In this document: piece by piece, positions 12,165 to 63,150 of the stretch
Position numbering within the stretch: the first letter of the stretch is position 1
Layout of the letters: each line of letters starts with the position of its first letter
Source: Bacteroidales bacterium
GTDB lineage: Bacteria; Bacteroidota; Bacteroidia; Bacteroidales; ML635J-15
Reading direction: 5' to 3'
Length of the DNA: 64,000 nucleotides
Assembly (NCBI GenBank): GCA_045112395.1
Contig: JBGUHW010000021.1
Span: 4,482-68,481, forward strand
Notes under the pieces: model-generated
The model's input: only the letters and a program-made list of their open reading frames with translations
Told to the model about the DNA's origin: nothing
Databases searched by the model: none
Translations under genes and position numbers: made by a program

Positions 12165-12377
12165 ATTCGTACTTATTAATATTAGTGTCAACAAAAATAA
12201 TTCTCTCTGTTTAAATGGCAAAATGTTTTTGTAGACATGTTGCTAATGACGGACGTTGTACGCAATGCTGCCATAGATTTTGAAATTAATTCGGCACAAA
12301 TCATTGTGCCGCTACAAATTGAACATTTTCTCTTAATTCATGTACAATCGTGTCATGGCGCGATTCTACATGAATCA

Positions 12378-13422: not shown

Positions 13423-13986
13423 ATGGCAACAACAGCAGACATTAGAAAAGGTTTAGCAATGGAACTCGAAGGAAAGCTTTACCTTGTAGTTGATTTTCAG
13501 CATGTAAAACCAGGCAAAGGCGGAGCATTCGTCCGTACAAAACTTAAGAGCCTCGAAAATGGCAGAACCATTGACAAGACTTTTAACTCGGGTGCATCAA
13601 TAAATCCAGTAAGAATAGAGCGTCGTCCGTACCAGTTCGTATATAAGGACGATATGGGATACAATTTCATGCACATGGAGACTTTTGAGCAGATTGCAAT
13701 TCCTGAAGATGTTATTGATGGTGTAGAATTCTTGAAGGAAGGTCAGGATGTTGAAGTTGTTGTTCATGCTGAAACAGAAACTCCGCTTTCATGCGAACTT
13801 CCTCCATTCATCGAGGCTACCGTTACATATACAGAGCCAGGTTTGAAGGGTGATACAACAACCAACGCACTTAAACCAGCAACAATTGATACAGGCGCTC
13901 AGGTGATGGTTCCTTTGTTCATCGAAATTGGTGAAAAGATTAAAGTTGACACACGTACAAAGGAATACGCTGAAAGGGCAAAATAA
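13423..13986 (+). CDS. efp: Elongation factor P
   Basis: 187 aa with an EF-P signature ([15 protein letters not shown]). Confidence 0.95.
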
Positions 13987-22083: not shown

Positions 22084-22370
22084 CCGTAGTTTATCTATAA
22101 AATCGCGTACAAAAATATAATGCCAGAAATAATAAAATTCACACGAAACATAAAGTAATCAACACATTAGTGTTTATTACCATTTATAACCCTCGGATTT
22201 TCAGGCAAAAGCGGTTTTAAGCATAAGATACAGCAAAAATATCATAAAGATAAATTATTGATATTGAATGTATTAGTAATCAATCGTTGCCATATAACGA
22301 TAGTAGCATCTATATTGTAAAGACGCAAAATTTTGCGTCTCAAAAAATGAATATTGTGCAATGTCCCACC

Positions 22371-22426
22371 CATTGAATCTTTAAATTTTTGAATTATTGA
22401 ATTTTCAAATCATCGAATTATCAAAT
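22371..22426. repeat. Degenerate tandem array, 7 units in strict 8-bp register (nnTYRAAT)
   Basis: cattgaat ctttaaat ttttgaat tattgaat tttcaaat catcgaat tatcaaat. Confidence 0.6.
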
Positions 22427-22431
22427 TTTAT

Positions 22432-22439
22432 TACTTTTG
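22432..22439 (+). promoter_or_regulatory. -7 box (TActTTTG) upstream of pyrH
   Basis: TAnnTTTG 21 nt before ATG 22460. Confidence 0.4.
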
Positions 22440-22459
22440 TGACCTAAAAAATTATTGCG

Positions 22460-34635: not shown

Positions 34636-34730
34636 AAACCGCTCCCTGAGCAGTTCATAGACACCCCCTGAGCTTGTCGAATGGCAAGTCGAAGTGTCAA
34701 TTGATGTAATAATTGATTAATAAAGATTAT

Positions 34731-35336
34731 ATGTCCCTATCCCTATTCACTCGTTTTCCAAATCCGTTTCTAAAAGGAATACGGAGGGTGAAAGGTTTGG
34801 GCAAAGTCGTCTATATCACCTTCGACGACGGGCCAACGCCAGAAGTCACAGAGGAGATTCTTGCAATTCTCGCCCACTATTCCGTTAAGGCTTCTTTTTT
34901 CTGTTGCGGACAGAATGCCGATGCCAATCCCGACCAGCTGAAAAAAATCGCCGACGAGGGACATTCCATCGGGTACCATTCATATTCTCACAAGGATATA
35001 TTGAAAACAAAACCTTCGGAGTGGCTTGCCGATGTTGAGCGGAGGTCAGCAGTGTCGGAGGAGGATTTGTTTCGTCCGCCCTATGGCAGGATATCATTAC
35101 GCCATTATTGTAAGCTGAAATCTAAATACAAGTTTGTATTCTGGGATGTCATGTCGTACGATTATGATGTTACACGTTCCTCCGAATCAATCATGTCGTT
35201 GTTGGAAAAGTCGGTGCGCGAAGGTTCTGTTGTTGTTTTCCACGACAAAGTAAAATGTAAAGACAACACCTTGGCGGTACTGCCGCAGTTTATCGAATTG
35301 ATGAAATCAAAGGGATATTCGTTCGGTGTACTATAG
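34731..35336 (+). CDS. Polysaccharide deacetylase (NodB homology domain)
   Basis: ITFDDGP, HSYSH and the RPPYG motif. Start placed at ATG 34731, because the track TTG 34713 lies inside a repeat tract. Confidence 0.85.
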   Translation: MSLSLFTRFPNPFLKGIRRVKGLGKVVYITFDDGPTPEVTEEILAILAHYSVKASFFCCGQNADANPDQLKKIADEGHSIGYHSYSHKDILKTKPSEWLADVERRSAVSEEDLFRPPYGRISLRHYCKLKSKYKFVFWDVMSYDYDVTRSSESIMSLLEKSVREGSVVVFHDKVKCKDNTLAVLPQFIELMKSKGYSFGVL

Positions 35337-35532
35337 GCTTACAGTCTTATAGGCTTACAGTCTTACAGGCTCACAGTCTTGCAGTCGAACGGTCTCACAG
35401 TCTCACAGGCTTGCCGTCTTGCTGTCTCACGGTCTTGCAGGCGAACAGTCACACAATCTTACAGGCTTGTGGCTTTGCTGTCTGTCGGCCTTCGGTCTTC
35501 AAGCCTTTTAGCCTTCAAGCCTGTTAGCCTAA
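35333..35532. repeat. Degenerate tandem array, 25 units of 8 bp (consensus ACAGKCTT) with a single 1-bp register slip
   Basis: Read unit by unit. Units 1-17 (35333-35468) are in strict register, there is one 7-bp unit near 35469-35475, then 8-bp register again. Spans exactly from the deacetylase stop codon to the stop codon of the convergent Rieske-like gene. Confidence 0.9.
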
Positions 35533-35966
35533 TAATACGAATTATAAATATACAGTACCGATCCCTGGTAATCTGTTGTGTATTGCAGAGGCGTGTATTT
35601 AGACGGACCGCTGACAATGTTGCCGTCGTTTAAGTTGAATTTTGAACCGCATACGGGGCACTGGAGGAATAAACCCGTAGAATCTACGCTAAGTATTGCG
35701 TCGTTTGTTCGCGGGTGGTGAGGGCAGGCGCGGTCGAAGGCAACCCATTCGTCGGGTGCCGTGCATGCTACTACAATGCCTTTGTATCCACCGTCAACAT
35801 ACATATAGTTGCCCGGAGTTTTCAGCGCAATATGTGATGGCATATCTGGGTACAGCTGGACGTTCACATAGACGTATGGTACGTATTCTTCTTTGTCGCA
35901 TGCTGGAATAACTCCCAAGGCAAATGTTATGATTGAAATAATTATTATCTTTGTCAGCGTTTTCAT
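35529..35966 (-). CDS. Rieske-fold-like small lipoprotein with an atypical metal-ligand pattern
   Basis: Lipobox (IPAC). CPHH...(18 aa)...CPVCGSKF resembles the Rieske CxH...CxxH, but the last His is replaced by Cys. Confidence 0.55.
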   Translation of the reverse strand: MKTLTKIIIISIITFALGVIPACDKEEYVPYVYVNVQLYPDMPSHIALKTPGNYMYVDGGYKGIVVACTAPDEWVAFDRACPHHPRTNDAILSVDSTGLFLQCPVCGSKFNLNDGNIVSGPSKYTPLQYTTDYQGSVLYIYNSYY

Positions 35967-46831: not shown

Positions 46832-48181
46832 ATGAGAATACATTTCATAGCAATTGGCGGTGCAGCAATGCACAACTTGGCGATAGCGCTTTGCAAAAAA
46901 GGGTACAATGTATCAGGTTCTGACGATGAAATATTCGAGCCATCGCGCTCGCGTTTGGAAGCCTGCGGACTTCTGCCCAAGGACTTTGGCTGGCATCCCG
47001 AAAATATCACTGCTGATATTGACATTGTGATACTTGGTATGCATGCGCGCAAAGATAATCCTGAGCTAATCCGTGCCCAAGAACTTGGACTAAAAATTTG
47101 TTCCTATCCTGAATACCTATACGAGCAGACAAAGTCTAAAATGCGCGTCGTAGTGGGTGGAAGTCACGGCAAGACTACCATAACCTCGATGATTATGCAT
47201 GTACTTAAAAAAGCAAATCTTGGTTTCGACTATATGGTAGGTGCAAATATCAAGGGTTTCGACACTATGGTAAACCTTGAGGACAAGAACCGCGTTGCAA
47301 TTTTCGAGGGCGATGAATATTTGTCGTCACCTATCGACCTGACACCTAAATTCCACTGGTATAAGCCGCATATTGCAGTGCTTACAGGTATTGCATGGGA
47401 TCATATAAATGTTTTTCCAACCTTCCCGAAGTATGTGGAACAGTTTGAAATATTTGTAAAGTCAATTCAGTATGGCGGAAACTTGTTCTGGTATGAAGGT
47501 GACGAAAACTTGAAGAAAATAAGTCGTGTAAACCATGATATTAAGTCAGAATCATACGGCAAGATTGATGTCGTTGAAGAAGATGGCAAATACTGCGTTG
47601 TACGAGGTGACAAGAAATATGTACTCAATGTATTTGGAGACCACAACTTCCAGAATATAAATGCAGCATACAAGGTTTGCGAGAAACTTGGCGTAAAGGA
47701 TGACATTTTCTGGTCGGCAATGGAAACATTTGAAGGTGCTGCAAAGAGATTGCAGTTGGTTAAGGAAACCGATGATTCGGCGTTCTACATCGATTTTGCA
47801 CATGCACCTAGCAAACTAAAAGCAACTGTTAATGCCCTGAAGCAGAAATATCCGAAACGCAAGCTTATTGCCTGCATCGAATTGCATACTTTCAGCAGTC
47901 TGCAGAAGAATTTTATTCCTCAGTACAATGGTGCAATGGACAATGCCGATACCGCAATTGTATATTACAATCGAGAAGTGCTAAAGCACAAGCAGTTGCC
48001 TGATATTCCAGAGGAATATGTAAAGGAAAGTTTTGGTGGCAAGGTTATGGTTTTTACCGATACTGTAAAGTTGCAGGAATATCTTCGTACGACAGATTGC
48101 CATGGAACTAACTACTTGATGATGAGTAGTGGAAATTTCAATGGTGTAGACTTCAAGAAACTTGCCGATGAAATAATATAG
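46832..48181 (+). CDS. mpl: Mur ligase family: UDP-N-acetylmuramate:L-Ala-gamma-D-Glu-meso-DAP ligase (Mpl-like)
   Basis: IHFIAIGGAAMHNLA N-terminus, GSHGKTT P-loop, ~450 aa. Confidence 0.85.
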   Translation: MRIHFIAIGGAAMHNLAIALCKKGYNVSGSDDEIFEPSRSRLEACGLLPKDFGWHPENITADIDIVILGMHARKDNPELIRAQELGLKICSYPEYLYEQTKSKMRVVVGGSHGKTTITSMIMHVLKKANLGFDYMVGANIKGFDTMVNLEDKNRVAIFEGDEYLSSPIDLTPKFHWYKPHIAVLTGIAWDHINVFPTFPKYVEQFEIFVKSIQYGGNLFWYEGDENLKKISRVNHDIKSESYGKIDVVEEDGKYCVVRGDKKYVLNVFGDHNFQNINAAYKVCEKLGVKDDIFWSAMETFEGAAKRLQLVKETDDSAFYIDFAHAPSKLKATVNALKQKYPKRKLIACIELHTFSSLQKNFIPQYNGAMDNADTAIVYYNREVLKHKQLPDIPEEYVKESFGGKVMVFTDTVKLQEYLRTTDCHGTNYLMMSSGNFNGVDFKKLADEII

Positions 48182-48201
48182 AGGCAAGTCAATTGCGAAA
48201 T

Positions 48202-48228
48202 AAAAGCGGTTTAAAAGACCGCTTTTTT
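48202..48228. terminator. Bidirectional terminator between convergent mpl and uxs
   Basis: aaaagcggt/accgctttt 9-bp stem. The T-run overlaps the uxs stop codon. Confidence 0.85.
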
Positions 48229-53748: not shown

Positions 53749-56670
53749 ATGACTTCGGAAACGAAACCAAAAAGATTAAGTGCCGTAGGTGCCATTTACA
53801 ATGTGGCCGCATCGACTATTGTGGAATATCTTGTCAGCAAGGGTGTAGAAATAGAAAACAACCCTAATGCCAAGGTACAGCCCGAATGGTTGGCTCTGCT
53901 CGACGAAAAGTTCAAGGATTCGAAAGCCATGAACGAAACCGCCATCAAGGATACCGAGAAGGCAAAGGAGAACAAGGAGCTGAACATTTCAATCGAAAAG
54001 CAGCAGAACCTTGAGAAGCAGAAACAGGAAGCCGACAAGGCCAAGGAAGCAAAGGAAAAAGAACGTCTCCAAAAGGAGGCTGAGACTGCTAAGCCACAGG
54101 AAAAGCCTGCAGAGAAGGTGTCGGCAAAGGATGAAGCCGAGGTCGCTCCAAAGCCTAAGCCACACGAAATCCAGCCATTAAAGGAGGAAGTCGTGACCGA
54201 TGAAAACGGACCGAAGGTTCTCGGTACTATAAACCTCGACCAGATAAACCAGAAAACTCGTCCGAAACCAAAGACACAGGCCGAGAAGGAAGAGGAAAGA
54301 AAGCAGAAGAAAGAGGCTGCAAAGGAAGCCCAGAAGCAAGCAAAGAAGGCTTCTGCTAAACCTGCTCCAAAAGAAACTCCAGTACCTGCTCCTAAGCCTG
54401 TTAAACAGGAGAAAGCTCCCGAAGTAGAACCCGAAAAGATTGTTCCGCCAGAGCCAGAGTTCATAAAAACTCATGTGGAAAAATTGCAAGGACCTAACAT
54501 TATCGGCAAAATCGACATAAGCGAATACGAGCGTAAGCAGGAAGCTGCTGAAAGGGCTCGCAAGGAAGCTAAGGAAGAACGCCAAAAGAATCGCGAAAAA
54601 GAAAAGGCAGAGCGTAAGGAAAAGCGTAAACGTATTAAACGCGATAATGTTAAGGTTGATATAAACAAAGTTGGAGGCTCAAACGACTTCTCGAAGAAGG
54701 GAGAAAAAGGTGGCGAATTCGGTGGAAAGAAGAAGAAAGGCAAATTAGGTCCTAAGAAGCCTGAAATCAACGAGGAAGACATACAGGAAAAAGTAAAGGA
54801 AACCCTTGCAAAGCTTACCGCAAACAAGAACAAGTCGAAAGCTGCTAAGTTCCGTAAGGAAAAACGCGATATGTTCTCTATGCGTCGTGCTGAGGAAGAG
54901 GAAAGACTCGAAGCCGAAAAGAAAATCATAAAGGTTACCGAATTCGTTTCGGCAAACGAACTTGCAACGATGATGGGCGTTCCTGTAACCAAGATCATCG
55001 CAACTTGTATGAGTTTGGGCTTGTTCGTTTCTATCAACCAGCGTCTCGATGCCGAAACAATGTCGATTGTGGCTGAGGAATTTGGTTTCCAGGTTGAATT
55101 TGTCAGCGCCGAAATCCTCGACGAAATCAAGGAGAGCGAAGACAGCGAGGAAGACCTTGTTCCACGTCCACCTATCGTTACCGTCATGGGTCATGTCGAC
55201 CATGGTAAGACCAAGTTGCTCGACTACATCCGTCATACCAATGTTGTAGCAGGCGAAGCCGGTGGTATCACACAGCACATCGGTGCATACAGCGTACAGC
55301 TGAACGACAAGAGGATAACCTTCCTCGATACTCCTGGTCACGAGGCATTTACCGCAATGCGTGCCCGTGGTGCTCAGATTACCGATGTTGCAATCATCGT
55401 AATCGCTGCCGACGACGACATAATGCCGCAGACCAAGGAAGCTATCAACCACGCATCAGCAGCAAACGTTCCTATCGTATTTGCTATCAACAAGATAGAT
55501 AAGCCAACCGCTAATCCCGACAAAATCAAGGAATCGTTGGCAAATATGAACTACCTCGTTGAGGAATGGGGCGGTAAATACCAGTCGCAGGATATTTCGG
55601 CAAAGGCAGGTCTCAACATCGAGGAATTGCTTGAGAAGGTTCTTCTCGAAGCCGAAATGCTTGATTTGAAGGCAAATCCAAACAAGAATGCCAATGGTAC
55701 AGTAATCGAATCCTCACTCGATAAGGGTCGTGGTTATGTTGCAACACTCATCGTTCAGTCGGGAACCTTGCATGTTGGTGACATTCTGCTTGCAGGATGT
55801 GCAACAGGACGTGTAAAGGCTATGTACAACGAGCGCAACCAGAAGGTTACCGAAGCTGGCCCATCAACTCCAGTTCTTGTGCTTGGTTTGAACGGAGCTC
55901 CGCAGGCAGGCGACAAGTTCAATGTCCTTGATTCGGAACAGGAAGCTCGTAGCCTTGCTAACAAGCGTTTGCAGTTGCAGCGTGAGTTGAGCATCAGGAC
56001 GCAGAAGCATATTACTCTCGGCGAAATTGGTCGTCGTATGGCTCTCGGCGATTTCCACCAGATAAATATCATCGTAAAGGGCGATGTGGACGGTTCAATC
56101 GAAGCATTGTCGGACGAATTGATAAAACTCTCAACCGAATCGTTCGAAGTAAACATCATACACAAGGCTGTCGGTCAGATTTCCGAATCGGATGTCATGC
56201 TGGCTGCTGCATCAAATGCAATCATCGTAGGTTTCCAGGTTCGTCCATCTACCTACGCACGCAAGACCGCCGAGAAGGAAGGCATCGAAATCCGCCTCTA
56301 CTCCATCATCTACGATGCTATCAACGAAATCAAGGACGCTATGGAAGGTATGTTGAAGCCGGTTGTAAAGGAAACAATCACCGGTTCGGCCGAAATACGC
56401 GAAGTATTCAAGATTTCGAAGGTTGGTTCGGTTGCTGGATGTCTCGTTACCGATGGCAAGATTTCACGCAAGTCGAAAGTCAGAATTATCCGCGATGGTA
56501 TCGTCATCTACACTGGCGAACTCGGCAGCTTGAAGCGTTTCAAAGACGATGCCAAGGAAGTTATTGCCGGTCAGGAATGCGGTCTTAACATCGACAAGTT
56601 CAACGACATTAAGGTCGGCGATATTGTTGAGGCATTCGACGAAACCGAAGTAAAGGCAACATTGGGATAA
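53749..56670 (+). CDS. infB: Translation initiation factor IF-2
   Basis: 973 aa. Lys/Glu/Pro-rich N-terminus. GTPase motifs [13 protein letters not shown] and NKID. Confidence 0.95.
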
Positions 56671-61212: not shown

Positions 61213-61239
61213 AAAAGGACGGCGTAAGTCGTCCTTTTT
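61213..61239 (+). terminator. Intrinsic terminator after the 524-aa gene
   Basis: aaaaggacg/cgtcctttt stem plus T-run. Confidence 0.85.
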
Positions 61240-61252
61240 AAATTTACACCAA

Positions 61253-61365
61253 AAATTCTCAAATTCTCAAATCATCAAATTATCGAATGATTGAATTGTT
61301 AAATCATTGAATTATTGAATCATCAAATTTTCAAATTTTCAAATATTTCAAATCTTTGAATCATT
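61253..61365. repeat. Degenerate tandem array, 8-bp units (RAATNWTY), 12 in strict register then a +1 slip and 2 more
   Basis: aaattctc aaattctc aaatcatc aaattatc gaatgatt gaattgtt aaatcatt gaattatt gaatcatc aaattttc aaattttc aaatattt | c aaatcttt gaatcatt. Confidence 0.85.
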
Positions 61366-61427
61366 CTTTCCTCATATCGAAATTCAACAGCTACAACCAT
61401 GCTGAAGCTGAGCGTAGAGCAAGCATC

Positions 61428-61973
61428 ATGTTGTCCGATTTTCAGCGGATGTATTTTGCACAGTATTATGCAAATCCGTTTCCGTTGCGCAAGTCGGCTG
61501 TGCTGATATTGCTGTTTGTCCGTGATGGCAGGCTGAAGACGATAATGATTGAGCGCACCGATGTAGGCGTGCATGCGGGACAGGTTTCGTTTCCGGGAGG
61601 CAAGGCTGAACCTGGCGATGTCGACAGCATCGACACGGCATTGCGAGAGACGGTGGAAGAAATTGGCATTGAGGTAGGTCGTGACGATGTTGTTGGCGAA
61701 TTGCCGCCAGTGAAGGTGCCTGTTAGCAAGTTCGAGATTTTCCCGTTGGTGGCATTTGTCGAGGAGGTTGGTGACATTGTTCTTTCCGAAAACGAGGTAA
61801 AGCGGGTGCTTGAGGTCGATTTGGCGGATTTGAAAGCATCGTTTTCCACCCGTCCGGTTACCGTAGCTGGTAAGCAGTACGAAGTGCCGAGTTATGTTTG
61901 TGGCAGTTCGGTGGTATGGGGCGCCTCGGCGATGATTCTAGCCGAGCTATTTGCGGTGGTAGGAGAACTCTAG
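61428..61973 (+). CDS. NUDIX hydrolase, CoA-pyrophosphatase-like
   Basis: Nudix box GGKAEPGDVDSIDTALRETVEEIGI. Start placed at ATG 61428, because the track TTG 61356 lies inside the repeat array. Confidence 0.8.
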   Translation: MLSDFQRMYFAQYYANPFPLRKSAVLILLFVRDGRLKTIMIERTDVGVHAGQVSFPGGKAEPGDVDSIDTALRETVEEIGIEVGRDDVVGELPPVKVPVSKFEIFPLVAFVEEVGDIVLSENEVKRVLEVDLADLKASFSTRPVTVAGKQYEVPSYVCGSSVVWGASAMILAELFAVVGEL

Positions 61974-61980
61974 CCATCAC

Positions 61981-62255
61981 TTCGATTCATTGAATCCTCA
62001 AATCCTTGAACATTGAACCCTTAACCTTAACCCTTAAACCTTGAACTTTAAACCAGAAACATAGAAACGTGAAACATAGAAACGTGAAACCTTGAACCTT
62101 AAACAAAGAAACCCAGAACCGGGCGTCAGCCCATTAAACGCCGCAGGCACAGAAACGGCGTAGCCTTTGAACATTGAACCCAGAAACCTGAAACGGCGCT
62201 AGCCCTTGAAACCCAGAAACGGGCGTCAGCCCATTAAACGGCGTAGCCATTAACA
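61981..62255. repeat. Composite degenerate array: 7-8-bp units (TTGAACC/TTAAACC/AGAAACG) followed by six AAAC-plus-GC-mini-palindrome modules
   Basis: Contains an exact 15-bp tandem duplication (62061-62075 and 62076-62090). A 33-bp repeat with 1 mismatch lies exactly 100 bp apart (62108-62140 and 62208-62240). Confidence 0.75.
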
Positions 62256-62318
62256 CCGCTTGTTAAAAAATAGGCATTACAAATCATGCTATACAACATT
62301 TTGTGTCTAACTTTTACA

Positions 62319-63096: not shown

Positions 63097-63124
63097 AAAT
63101 AGACAATTGATAATTGATAATTGG

Positions 63125-63150
63125 TAGCATCGTGCCATGGCGCGATGCTA
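63125..63150 (+). other. Intercistronic hairpin between the NifU-like and GGGtGRT genes
   Basis: tagcatcg/cgatgcta 8-bp stem with a 10-nt loop. Flanked by outer inverted words ataattggt / accaattat and short 7-8-bp repeats. Confidence 0.5.

Follow-up and report, generated by a model that had tools for sequence, protein, structure and literature searches.

An array of degenerate 8-bp units filling the space between two convergent stop codons in a Bacteroidales bacterium

What stands between two convergent genes where a bidirectional terminator would usually be placed, and how can such a spacer be heavily substituted and yet keep a perfect repeat phase? These questions are raised by a 64-kb window of Bacteroidales bacterium DNA (assembly GCA_045112395.1, contig JBGUHW010000021.1; all coordinates given without a locus name lie within this window), in which the gap between a polysaccharide deacetylase gene and a gene for a Rieske-like lipoprotein is occupied, from one stop codon to the other, by a tandem array of degenerate octamers. 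The periodic array is real and statistically overwhelming. On balance, we consider it probable that the spacer is a long-unit simple sequence repeat (SSR), an octamer ‘minisatellite’, that it is one case of a lineage-wide set of intergenic arrays with a period of 7–8 bp, and that it is renewed by slippage or unequal recombination.

Counted from 35333, the array opens with 17 units of 8 bp; a 7-bp unit (35469–35475) and seven further units of 8 bp, the last of which ends at 35531, complete it. Tandem Repeats Finder (TRF) reports one block of period 8 at 35338–35468 (16.4 copies; matches 67%, indels 0%) and another block at 35497–35530. The lag-8 self-match of the 199-nt array is 0.623, compared with 0.255 ± 0.031 in 5000 shuffles (z = 11.8), and the top peak of its Fourier spectrum lies at a period of 7.96. 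When the whole 64 kb is scanned in windows of 64 nt, self-match values of 0.65 or above are reached only at lag 8 and its multiples. The array therefore has, by both TRF and the lag-8 z-score, the head-to-tail copies of a 5–9 bp unit that mark a long-unit SSR.

A first-pass annotation of this DNA had described a stop-to-stop array of 25 units with the register kept, and the sequence reads as described, with TRF and the lag-8 analysis in agreement; only its right-hand end had been placed one base too far, at 35532. The same annotation found no ordinary hairpin/T-run terminator in the gap, and a terminator scan inside 35337–35528 likewise detected no compact GC-rich stem-loop followed by a T-run. 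It also dismissed an 84-amino-acid open reading frame (ORF) as a mere translation of the repeat, which holds: the ORF is not a gene, because the lengths of the orthologous spacers differ by non-multiples of 3 and the frame is not preserved among them. The description stands in other respects too, while passing over the quasi-complementary last seven units, the palindromic AG-N-CT core and three more arrays in the window.

The consensus derived from 141 unfiltered in-register units is Y-A-G-N-C-T-N-N. G3 and C5 are 96% invariant, followed by T6 (82%) and A2 (76%), and the linker positions 7 and 8 are nearly free, with 0.28 and 0.09 bit, respectively. Self-match is flat (0.62–0.70) at every multiple of 8, apart from isolated peaks at 56 nt in the window allele and at 40 and 88 nt in the allele of locus L035; this profile points to block duplication within a pool of related units, and not to the erosion of a repeat that was perfect at first. 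The core AG-N-CT equals its own reverse complement, and in every allele it is centred on G or T throughout the 5′ part but on C in the 3′ part. The last seven units of the array are a quasi-complement of the first ones, and the four units of the 3′ part resemble the 5′ part when read on the minus strand (TAGGCTAA CAGGCTTG AAGGCTAA AAGGCTTG). The ends of the window allele, which are 77% complementary, thus give the appearance of an inverted repeat, mostly because the core is palindromic and the centre base switches. Between the two parts lies an irregular transition zone, the core of which, tggctttgctgtctgtcggc, is also present in a 96%-identical strain (L001/L002). Transcription-coupled strand asymmetry was considered as a cause of the centre-base switch and was ruled out, since the same switch is found between co-directional genes; the AGKCT/AGMCT dyad flavour as a whole occurs in convergent, co-directional and divergent gene contexts.

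The deacetylase/Rieske junction was recovered from ~19 syntenic loci with 15 distinct alleles, drawn from genome and metagenome collections and all of them metagenome assemblies. The nearest relatives are uncultured rumen Bacteroidales metagenome-assembled genomes (MAGs), including RUG, RGIG and UBA1184. In all ~19 loci the spacer is built of the same unit type, and its length is hypervariable, ranging from 71 to 271 nt, or from 9 to 34 units. The window allele measures 198 nt and that of L001/L002 103 nt, with flanks that are 96% identical and a Rieske protein that is 100% identical; the spacers of L007 (87 nt) and L029 (164 nt) are framed by flanks of 97–98% identity. Strains with 96–98% identical flanks can therefore carry spacers ~77–95 nt apart in length. 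Copy-number variation between close strains, a further mark of a long-unit SSR, is seen both at this junction and at a second array upstream of pyrH (see below).

The changes in length are not arbitrary. Read in 8-mers from the TAG stop codon, the spacers form one unbroken register, and eight distinct alleles have inner lengths (65, 73, 81, 97, 113, 129, 177 and 265 nt) that all leave a remainder of 1 on division by 8. Events that involve several units at once can be recognized in individual alleles: L010 and L029 differ by 16 nt in length, L029 contains an exact 24-nt (3-unit) duplication, and L007 corresponds to L008 minus the DNA between two CTAGCCTTTTCGCCT direct repeats. A separate observation concerns a ~29-nt non-repeat insert (CCTTCGAGTTTGATATTGTTTGAATTTGG) in the middle of the spacer of L008, L010, L029–L033 and L037, where the register is shifted and the inner length, taken modulo 8, is 6 and not 1; in L007 this insert and the distal arm seem to have been lost together, by deletion between its two CTAGCCTTTTCGCCT repeats.

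The array is not an isolated case. Intergenic DNA from 13 loci of the clade (20 kb) gives a lag-8 match of 0.34, where the baseline is ~0.28. In 377 kb of clade loci, TRF detects 38 period-8 arrays, a count inflated by about a dozen by the deliberate sampling of the orthologous spacer, together with 12 arrays of period 7 and at most 5 of any other period; 199 kb of outgroup loci contain a single period-8 array. Arrays cover 8–19% of intergenic bases and 0.12% of coding bases. Occurrence at many loci, in non-coding DNA and within one lineage, as expected of this type of SSR, is thus observed in the window and in the comparison of the clade with the outgroup. The earlier suggestion that the spacer is a hotspot of slippage-generated DNA agrees with these data, in that close strains differ freely in their number of units and their spacer lengths change in multiples of 8. 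The two other roles put forward in the first-pass annotation, a protein-binding or structural DNA array and an insulator of convergent transcription, are possible, and the test made on them, for a conserved hairpin, came out negative (see below). The first-pass annotation had also proposed to examine intergenic DNA for an excess of period 8, which was found, and had named two findings that would together reduce the array to a neutral minisatellite, namely free variation in unit number and the lack of any period-8 excess beyond this site. The former applies and the latter does not, the excess being strong and clade-wide; far from being a neutral minisatellite on its own, the array thus belongs to a lineage-wide class.

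Slippage that is anchored on the unit core could produce an array of this kind. Misalignment of units during replication or recombination would add or remove whole units or multi-unit blocks, by which the array would renew itself. Were misalignment to anchor only on the common core Y-A-G-N-C-T, length would change in steps of 8n and the register would survive, while the two linker positions would remain free to mutate, leaving an array that is heavily substituted and yet perfectly phased. The array may have spread in this way until it was halted by both stop codons, and so come to occupy the usual place of a bidirectional terminator. A model of core-anchored slippage would accordingly account for the 8n steps, the kept register, the contrast between core and linker, the fast change in length and the arrest at the stop codons. 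We infer that anchoring on the core may be what conserves particular positions of the unit, and that the array may serve no essential function.

Several points weigh against this explanation. Slippage is a presumed process, reconstructed from comparisons of alleles in metagenome assemblies. The 96% conservation of G3 and C5 could stem from recognition by a factor instead of from the anchoring of misaligned units. The same small set of unit flavours turns up again at many non-orthologous loci, and does so in species with deacetylase proteins that are 75–90% identical. The recurrent flavours are the AGKCT/AGMCT dyad, TCAAATYA/TTGAATYA upstream of promoter-like TAnnTTTG boxes, and AGAAACNN/TTAAACTT (AGAAAC-type), the arrays of which lie on the sense strand just upstream of start codons. 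Furthermore, all eight independent arrays of the flavour studied here share one polarity, with G/T-centred units first and C/A-centred units with T-rich linkers second, and an A-rich-then-T-rich polarity is that of a bidirectional terminator. Finally, the array is still present at every one of the ~19 syntenic loci (15 alleles), and at none of them does a canonical terminator stand in its place.

The last two points lead directly to the first alternative, according to which the array is an overgrown or unconventional bidirectional terminator or insulator. Its arms would be descended from the A-rich and U-rich arms of a bidirectional terminator and still work as such, or they would act as a 3′-end barrier to exonucleases or as a buffer where convergent transcripts collide; the number of units could vary so long as a U-rich 3′ arm or a degree of pairing remained. 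The position of the array fits this proposal. Most genes of the window end in canonical hairpin and T-run terminators, and the two other convergent pairs are separated by textbook bidirectional terminators (2114–2179 and 48181–48227), each with an A-tract, a GC stem and a T-tract; at the deacetylase/Rieske pair the array stands exactly where the canonical element is absent, and it is kept there in all syntenic relatives. Seven of the eight same-flavour arrays follow the end of a gene, five or six of these seven between co-directional genes, but one (L012) is found between divergent genes. The shared polarity also favours a terminator. At most other loci the G/T-centred units have A-rich linkers; the deacetylase-proximal arm of the present array is not A-rich.

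The folding of the array bears on the same proposal. The shortest allele, L003 (71 nt), is the only one that folds as a clean stop-to-stop hairpin, and it does so on both strands (z = -2.9 and -2.1); the window allele, with its complementary ends, reaches z = -2.2 to -2.7. This stability is not conserved, however. Over 15 alleles and both strands, fold z-scores against dinucleotide shuffles range from +2.3 to -3.5 with a mean of ~-1.4, and those of L013, L035, L005 and L006 lie between -1.1 and +2.3. The arms are strongly unbalanced, with 17 versus 7 units in the window and 3 versus 19 in L035. Nor is their complementarity specific to the allele, the arm-to-arm duplex energy being -33.5 kcal/mol within alleles and -36.8 kcal/mol between alleles, and it follows largely automatically from the palindromic core. 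As for an intrinsic (Rho-independent) terminator, the array shows neither a stem with a T-run after it nor a hairpin that is conserved between orthologues. A conserved RNA hairpin was likewise considered and is unsupported, since stability is not kept over the 15 alleles and the arms do not co-vary. A role of the array as a terminator or insulator is possible; as an account of what the spacer is, we judge it rather unlikely.

A different group of explanations starts from the unit itself. In the broadest of these, which we regard as unlikely, the arrays are clade-specific functional cis-elements and not debris of slippage, and a dedicated factor reads the Y-A-G-N-C-T core at a step of 8 nt. The dyads would be factor-dependent bidirectional terminators or insulators tuned by unit number, and the TCAAAT and AGAAAC flavours would be promoter-upstream and 5′-leader modules, respectively. 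If true, factor-read octamer arrays would amount to a modular, repeat-built intergenic grammar that is undescribed in bacteria.

A narrower form of the same idea, an array of binding sites, seems quite improbable to us. Here a clade-specific factor, for example a small dimeric DNA-binding protein that polymerizes at an 8-bp step in the manner of MetJ, or an RNA-binding protein, would read YAGNCT, and the other flavours would serve other factors. The strict 8-bp register, the near-invariant palindromic core next to a free linker, the presence of the same flavours at many loci and in many species, and the strand-specific placement of the AGAAAC-type arrays upstream of start codons are all in keeping with it. 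A range of 9 to 34 units at one locus is difficult to reconcile with a binding function, as is the presence or absence of sister arrays between close relatives. No candidate protein was identified, and the window is an ordinary stretch of housekeeping chromosome (dnaN, dxs, efp, pyrH, frr, greA, a Mur ligase gene and genes for TonB-dependent receptors). The units are, in a comparison by eye, unlike the metbox AGACGTCT, and a step of 8 bp places successive sites on different faces of the helix.

Still less can be said for a mobile or dispersed element, that is, sequences resembling miniature transposable elements with inverted repeats (MITEs) or repetitive extragenic palindromes (REPs), or the footprints of insertion and excision with 8-bp target duplications, and we hold this to be very improbable. 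The occurrence of few flavours at many loci, the genome-specific unit variants that are common to several loci (for example CTTCTTTT in three L011 arrays) and the likeness of the dyad to terminal inverted repeats would fit such an origin. Against it, the array takes the orthologous position in all syntenic relatives and no empty site was seen; it has no defined ends, target duplication or unique internal sequence, and its length changes are internal and in steps of 8n. No transposase or reverse transcriptase is present among the ~39 window proteins scanned. Transposon footprints with 8-bp target duplications were also considered separately, as an attractive generator of the units, and were set aside: there is no transposase among the window proteins scanned, no empty or filled sites were seen, and slippage explains the block events equally well.

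Other known kinds of repeat can be set apart by their structure. The 8-bp units abut directly, which differs from the 24–48 bp repeats and unique, similarly long spacers of CRISPR arrays, and the array, lying between two stop codons, has a copy number that affects neither a reading frame nor promoter spacing, whereas in an SSR of phase variation it switches expression through one of the two. An assembly artefact, or a coding or non-coding RNA gene, is barely credible: although all data are metagenome assemblies and the 84-amino-acid ORF spans the repeat, the degenerate units make k-mers unique, identical alleles come from independent samples and assemblers (the independent Logan assembly L287 has a 198-nt allele identical to that of the window; L001 = L002; L029 = L030 = L032), which makes an artefact unlikely, the ORF frame is not kept between alleles, and Rfam gives no match over the window at the gathering threshold and none at E ≤ 1 over 35200–35700.

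Three further intergenic arrays of period 7 or 8, with other units, bring the number of such loci in the window to four (Table 1). The array upstream of pyrH numbers 5–8 units where PyrH is 99% identical between strains, and it is missing from the relatives at 94% and 86% identity. The phylogenetic limits of such arrays can be drawn only loosely from these PyrH relatives (99%, 94% and 86%), since 20 kb per genome is too little to call absence. In L135 a synteny breakpoint lies at the distal edge of this array. Within the array that precedes the NUDIX gene, the annotated TTG start of that gene at 61356 is probably a mis-call, and the ATG at 61428 is the likelier start. The composite array at 61975–62260 grades from TTGAATCC into CCTTAAA (7 bp) and then into AGAAACRT (7+8 = 15 bp). 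Its mini-hairpins are otherwise absent from the window, save for one GGCGAAGCC match at 55252, and its layout recalls the small dispersed repeats within cyanobacterial heptamer arrays.

Table 1. Positions of the array, its parts, the flanking genes and the sister arrays in the 64-kb window.
Feature	Position	Strand	Description
Whole array	35333..35531	.	25 units in 8-bp register; fills the gap from stop codon to stop codon
5′ part	35334..35469	+	17 units from the TAG stop; type C-A-G-[G/T]-C-T-N-N (TAGGCTTA CAGTCTTA ... CAGGCTTG)
Irregular transition zone	35470..35499	.	Holds the sole 7-bp unit (register slip)
3′ part	35500..35531	+	Four N-A-G-C-C-T-N-N units (caagcctt ttagcctt caagcctg ttagccta)
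TAG stop of polysaccharide deacetylase gene	35334..35336	+	Makes up the first unit, TAGGCTTA; the array starts 1 base earlier
TAG stop of Rieske-like gene	35529..35531	-	CTA on the + strand; makes up the last unit
Spurious 84-aa ORF	35379..35633	+	Mere translation of the repeat
Polysaccharide deacetylase gene (PF01522)	34713..35336	+	Start TTG 34713 or ATG 34731
Rieske-like lipoprotein gene	35529..35966	-	145 aa; PF00355, marginal score; convergent with the deacetylase gene
TTGAATYA/TCAAATYA array	22363..22440	+	Ends ~10 nt before the pyrH Bacteroidetes-type -7 box TACTTTTG
TCAAATYA/TTGAATYA array	61240..61370	+	~15 units; preceded by a canonical terminator (61213-61240) and followed by the NUDIX gene
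Mixed 7/8/15-nt units (TTGAAYCC, CCTTAAA, AGAAACRT)	61975..62260	+	Interrupted by six GC-rich mini-hairpins GGCG(N1-3)AGCC

The leader of the exoIII gene shows how units of different type can occupy one place. Upstream of this gene (L004 9071–9139, L009, L007 9109–9223, L010 9125–9220, L006 3005–3173 and L013 6282–6536), different relatives have no array, 3–4 units of TCTTCAAA or ~12 of CCAGAAAC, behind the same promoter-like box TTATTTTTGTGCAATCG. The flavours therefore interconvert or are replaced at a single locus. Both here and upstream of pyrH, sister arrays are thus dispensable, which speaks for the slippage explanation. An 18-bp (near-)perfect palindrome, ATCGYGCCATGRCRCGAT, was noticed in the same setting. 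It is found at 12347–12364 and 63129–63146, with 4 strand-matches in the window against 0.03 expected, and in relatives (L006 3089–3106, L013 6383–6400), where it directly follows a -7-like TTTGTACA box upstream of the exoIII gene. Yet another flavour of 7–8 bp (GATAATT/GACAATG/AACAATT) stands right after stop codons at 63100–63125, in L005 at 2349–2380 and in L011 at 13815–13850.

Outside the clade, arrays of short period were sought in collections of viruses and plasmids. The idea of a general CAGKCT-octamer phenomenon was rejected, as pattern scans of IMG/VR gave 32 loci at period 8, while the controls gave 22 for period 7 and over 120 for period 9, without any special preference for 8; the IMG/VR matches are mostly perfect generic SSRs. 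When the spacer was compared by BLAST with collections of phages and plasmids, the only matches were a gene of a Corynebacterium phage and one array on a Pantoea plasmid, which are uninformative on origin. The latter array (Pantoea agglomerans plasmid NZ_CP090208.1, L144 1150–1310) is an 8-bp array directly after a stop codon that has the same units as the window array. Its unit drifts in homogeneous blocks, CTTTCTCG five times, CAGTCTCA four times and then CAGCCTCA/CAGCCTCG; it is a young, blockwise SSR in an unrelated phylum, the likeness of which to the window array is probably coincidental. Some viral or giant-virus contigs of IMG/VR (L057, L094 and L045/L052/L060) carry many 7–8-bp arrays of different units, 11 of them in 10 kb of L057, and some of these stand next to each other as quasi-complementary pairs, for example CTCCCAGG with GCCTTGGG after it. 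Arrays of short period in several flavours are therefore not confined to the Bacteroidales clade.

If the long-unit SSR interpretation is right, these arrays would be a third independent case of lineage-specific long-unit repeats, one with a different period (8) and with several flavours on that one period. The comparative evidence is unusually clear, comprising a stop-to-stop register, steps of 8n only, a G-N-C core next to free linkers and a fixed polarity. For repeats of the cyanobacterial and Xanthomonas types, decades of knowledge have brought no accepted mechanism or function. Two questions are made testable by the present arrays: whether core-anchored slippage is sufficient by itself or a factor reads the units, and whether an array can substitute for a bidirectional terminator. 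Interest would rise sharply should the arrays prove to be factor-read or to be terminators. In practical terms, the arrays make up about a tenth of the intergenic DNA in these rumen MAGs, provide length markers at the level of strains, and are likely to give rise to wrongly called ORFs and to gene starts set in the wrong place.

Literature searches returned no description of octamer arrays in Bacteroidales. The array can be placed by comparison with systems known from elsewhere. The REPs of enterobacteria and their clusters, the bacterial interspersed mosaic elements (BIMEs), are extragenic, often lie at 3′ ends or between convergent genes, occur clustered and in alternating orientation, and can protect the 3′ ends of mRNA. 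REP units are imperfect palindromes of ~35–40 bp that are dispersed by REP-associated tyrosine transposases (RAYTs). The present array shares with REP/BIME an extragenic place between convergent genes; it differs in having 8-bp units in a continuous direct, tandem register, and no RAYT was seen among the window proteins scanned, RAYT genes elsewhere in the genome not having been searched. The operators of MetJ consist of 2–5 tandem 8-bp palindromic metboxes at promoters and belong to a gamma-proteobacterial regulon. Both kinds of array are made of tandem palindromic 8-bp units in strict register, but the consensus of the present one, YAGNCTNN, is different, and up to 34 units lie here between stop codons. 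With bidirectional intrinsic terminators, such as the two of the window, the array has in common its position between convergent genes, the A-rich-then-T-rich polarity and a partial dyad symmetry; unlike them, it has no compact GC-rich stem or T-run, its arms are unbalanced and its fold is not conserved.

The closest parallels are found among tandem repeats of short units. The short tandemly repeated repetitive (STRR) sequences of cyanobacteria can form hairpins between genes, for which a stabilization of transcripts has been proposed and is unproven (PMC2670836). Like these, the arrays described here consist of short units in tandem, lie in non-coding DNA of one lineage and draw on a small set of unit types that recurs at many loci. 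The units of STRR sequences are 7 bp long, have defined sequences and belong to filamentous cyanobacteria, whereas the present unit has 8 bp, a palindromic core and a switch of the centre base. The heptamers GGGAATC of Xanthomonas and GGGGAYT of Nostoc/Anabaena are lineage-specific, nearly all intergenic and situated near or overlapping stop codons; they are often paired in inverted (convergent) orientation and occur at the same junction in related species with varying length and sequence, and polymerase slippage has been proposed for them (PMC4692102). The present array resembles them in being intergenic, in abutting stop codons, in its inverted arms and in the combination of a fixed junction with a variable length. 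It departs from them in the 8-bp unit, which has no G-tracts and hence no G-quadruplex potential, in its occurrence in Bacteroidota, in the several unrelated flavours that share one period and in the far greater degeneracy of its units (67% unit-to-unit identity). With an 8-bp unit in rumen Bacteroidales, in place of the published 7-bp units, the array does not belong to the STRR/heptamer family in the strict sense; it is a variant within a kind of bacterial repeat that is known but still awaits explanation.

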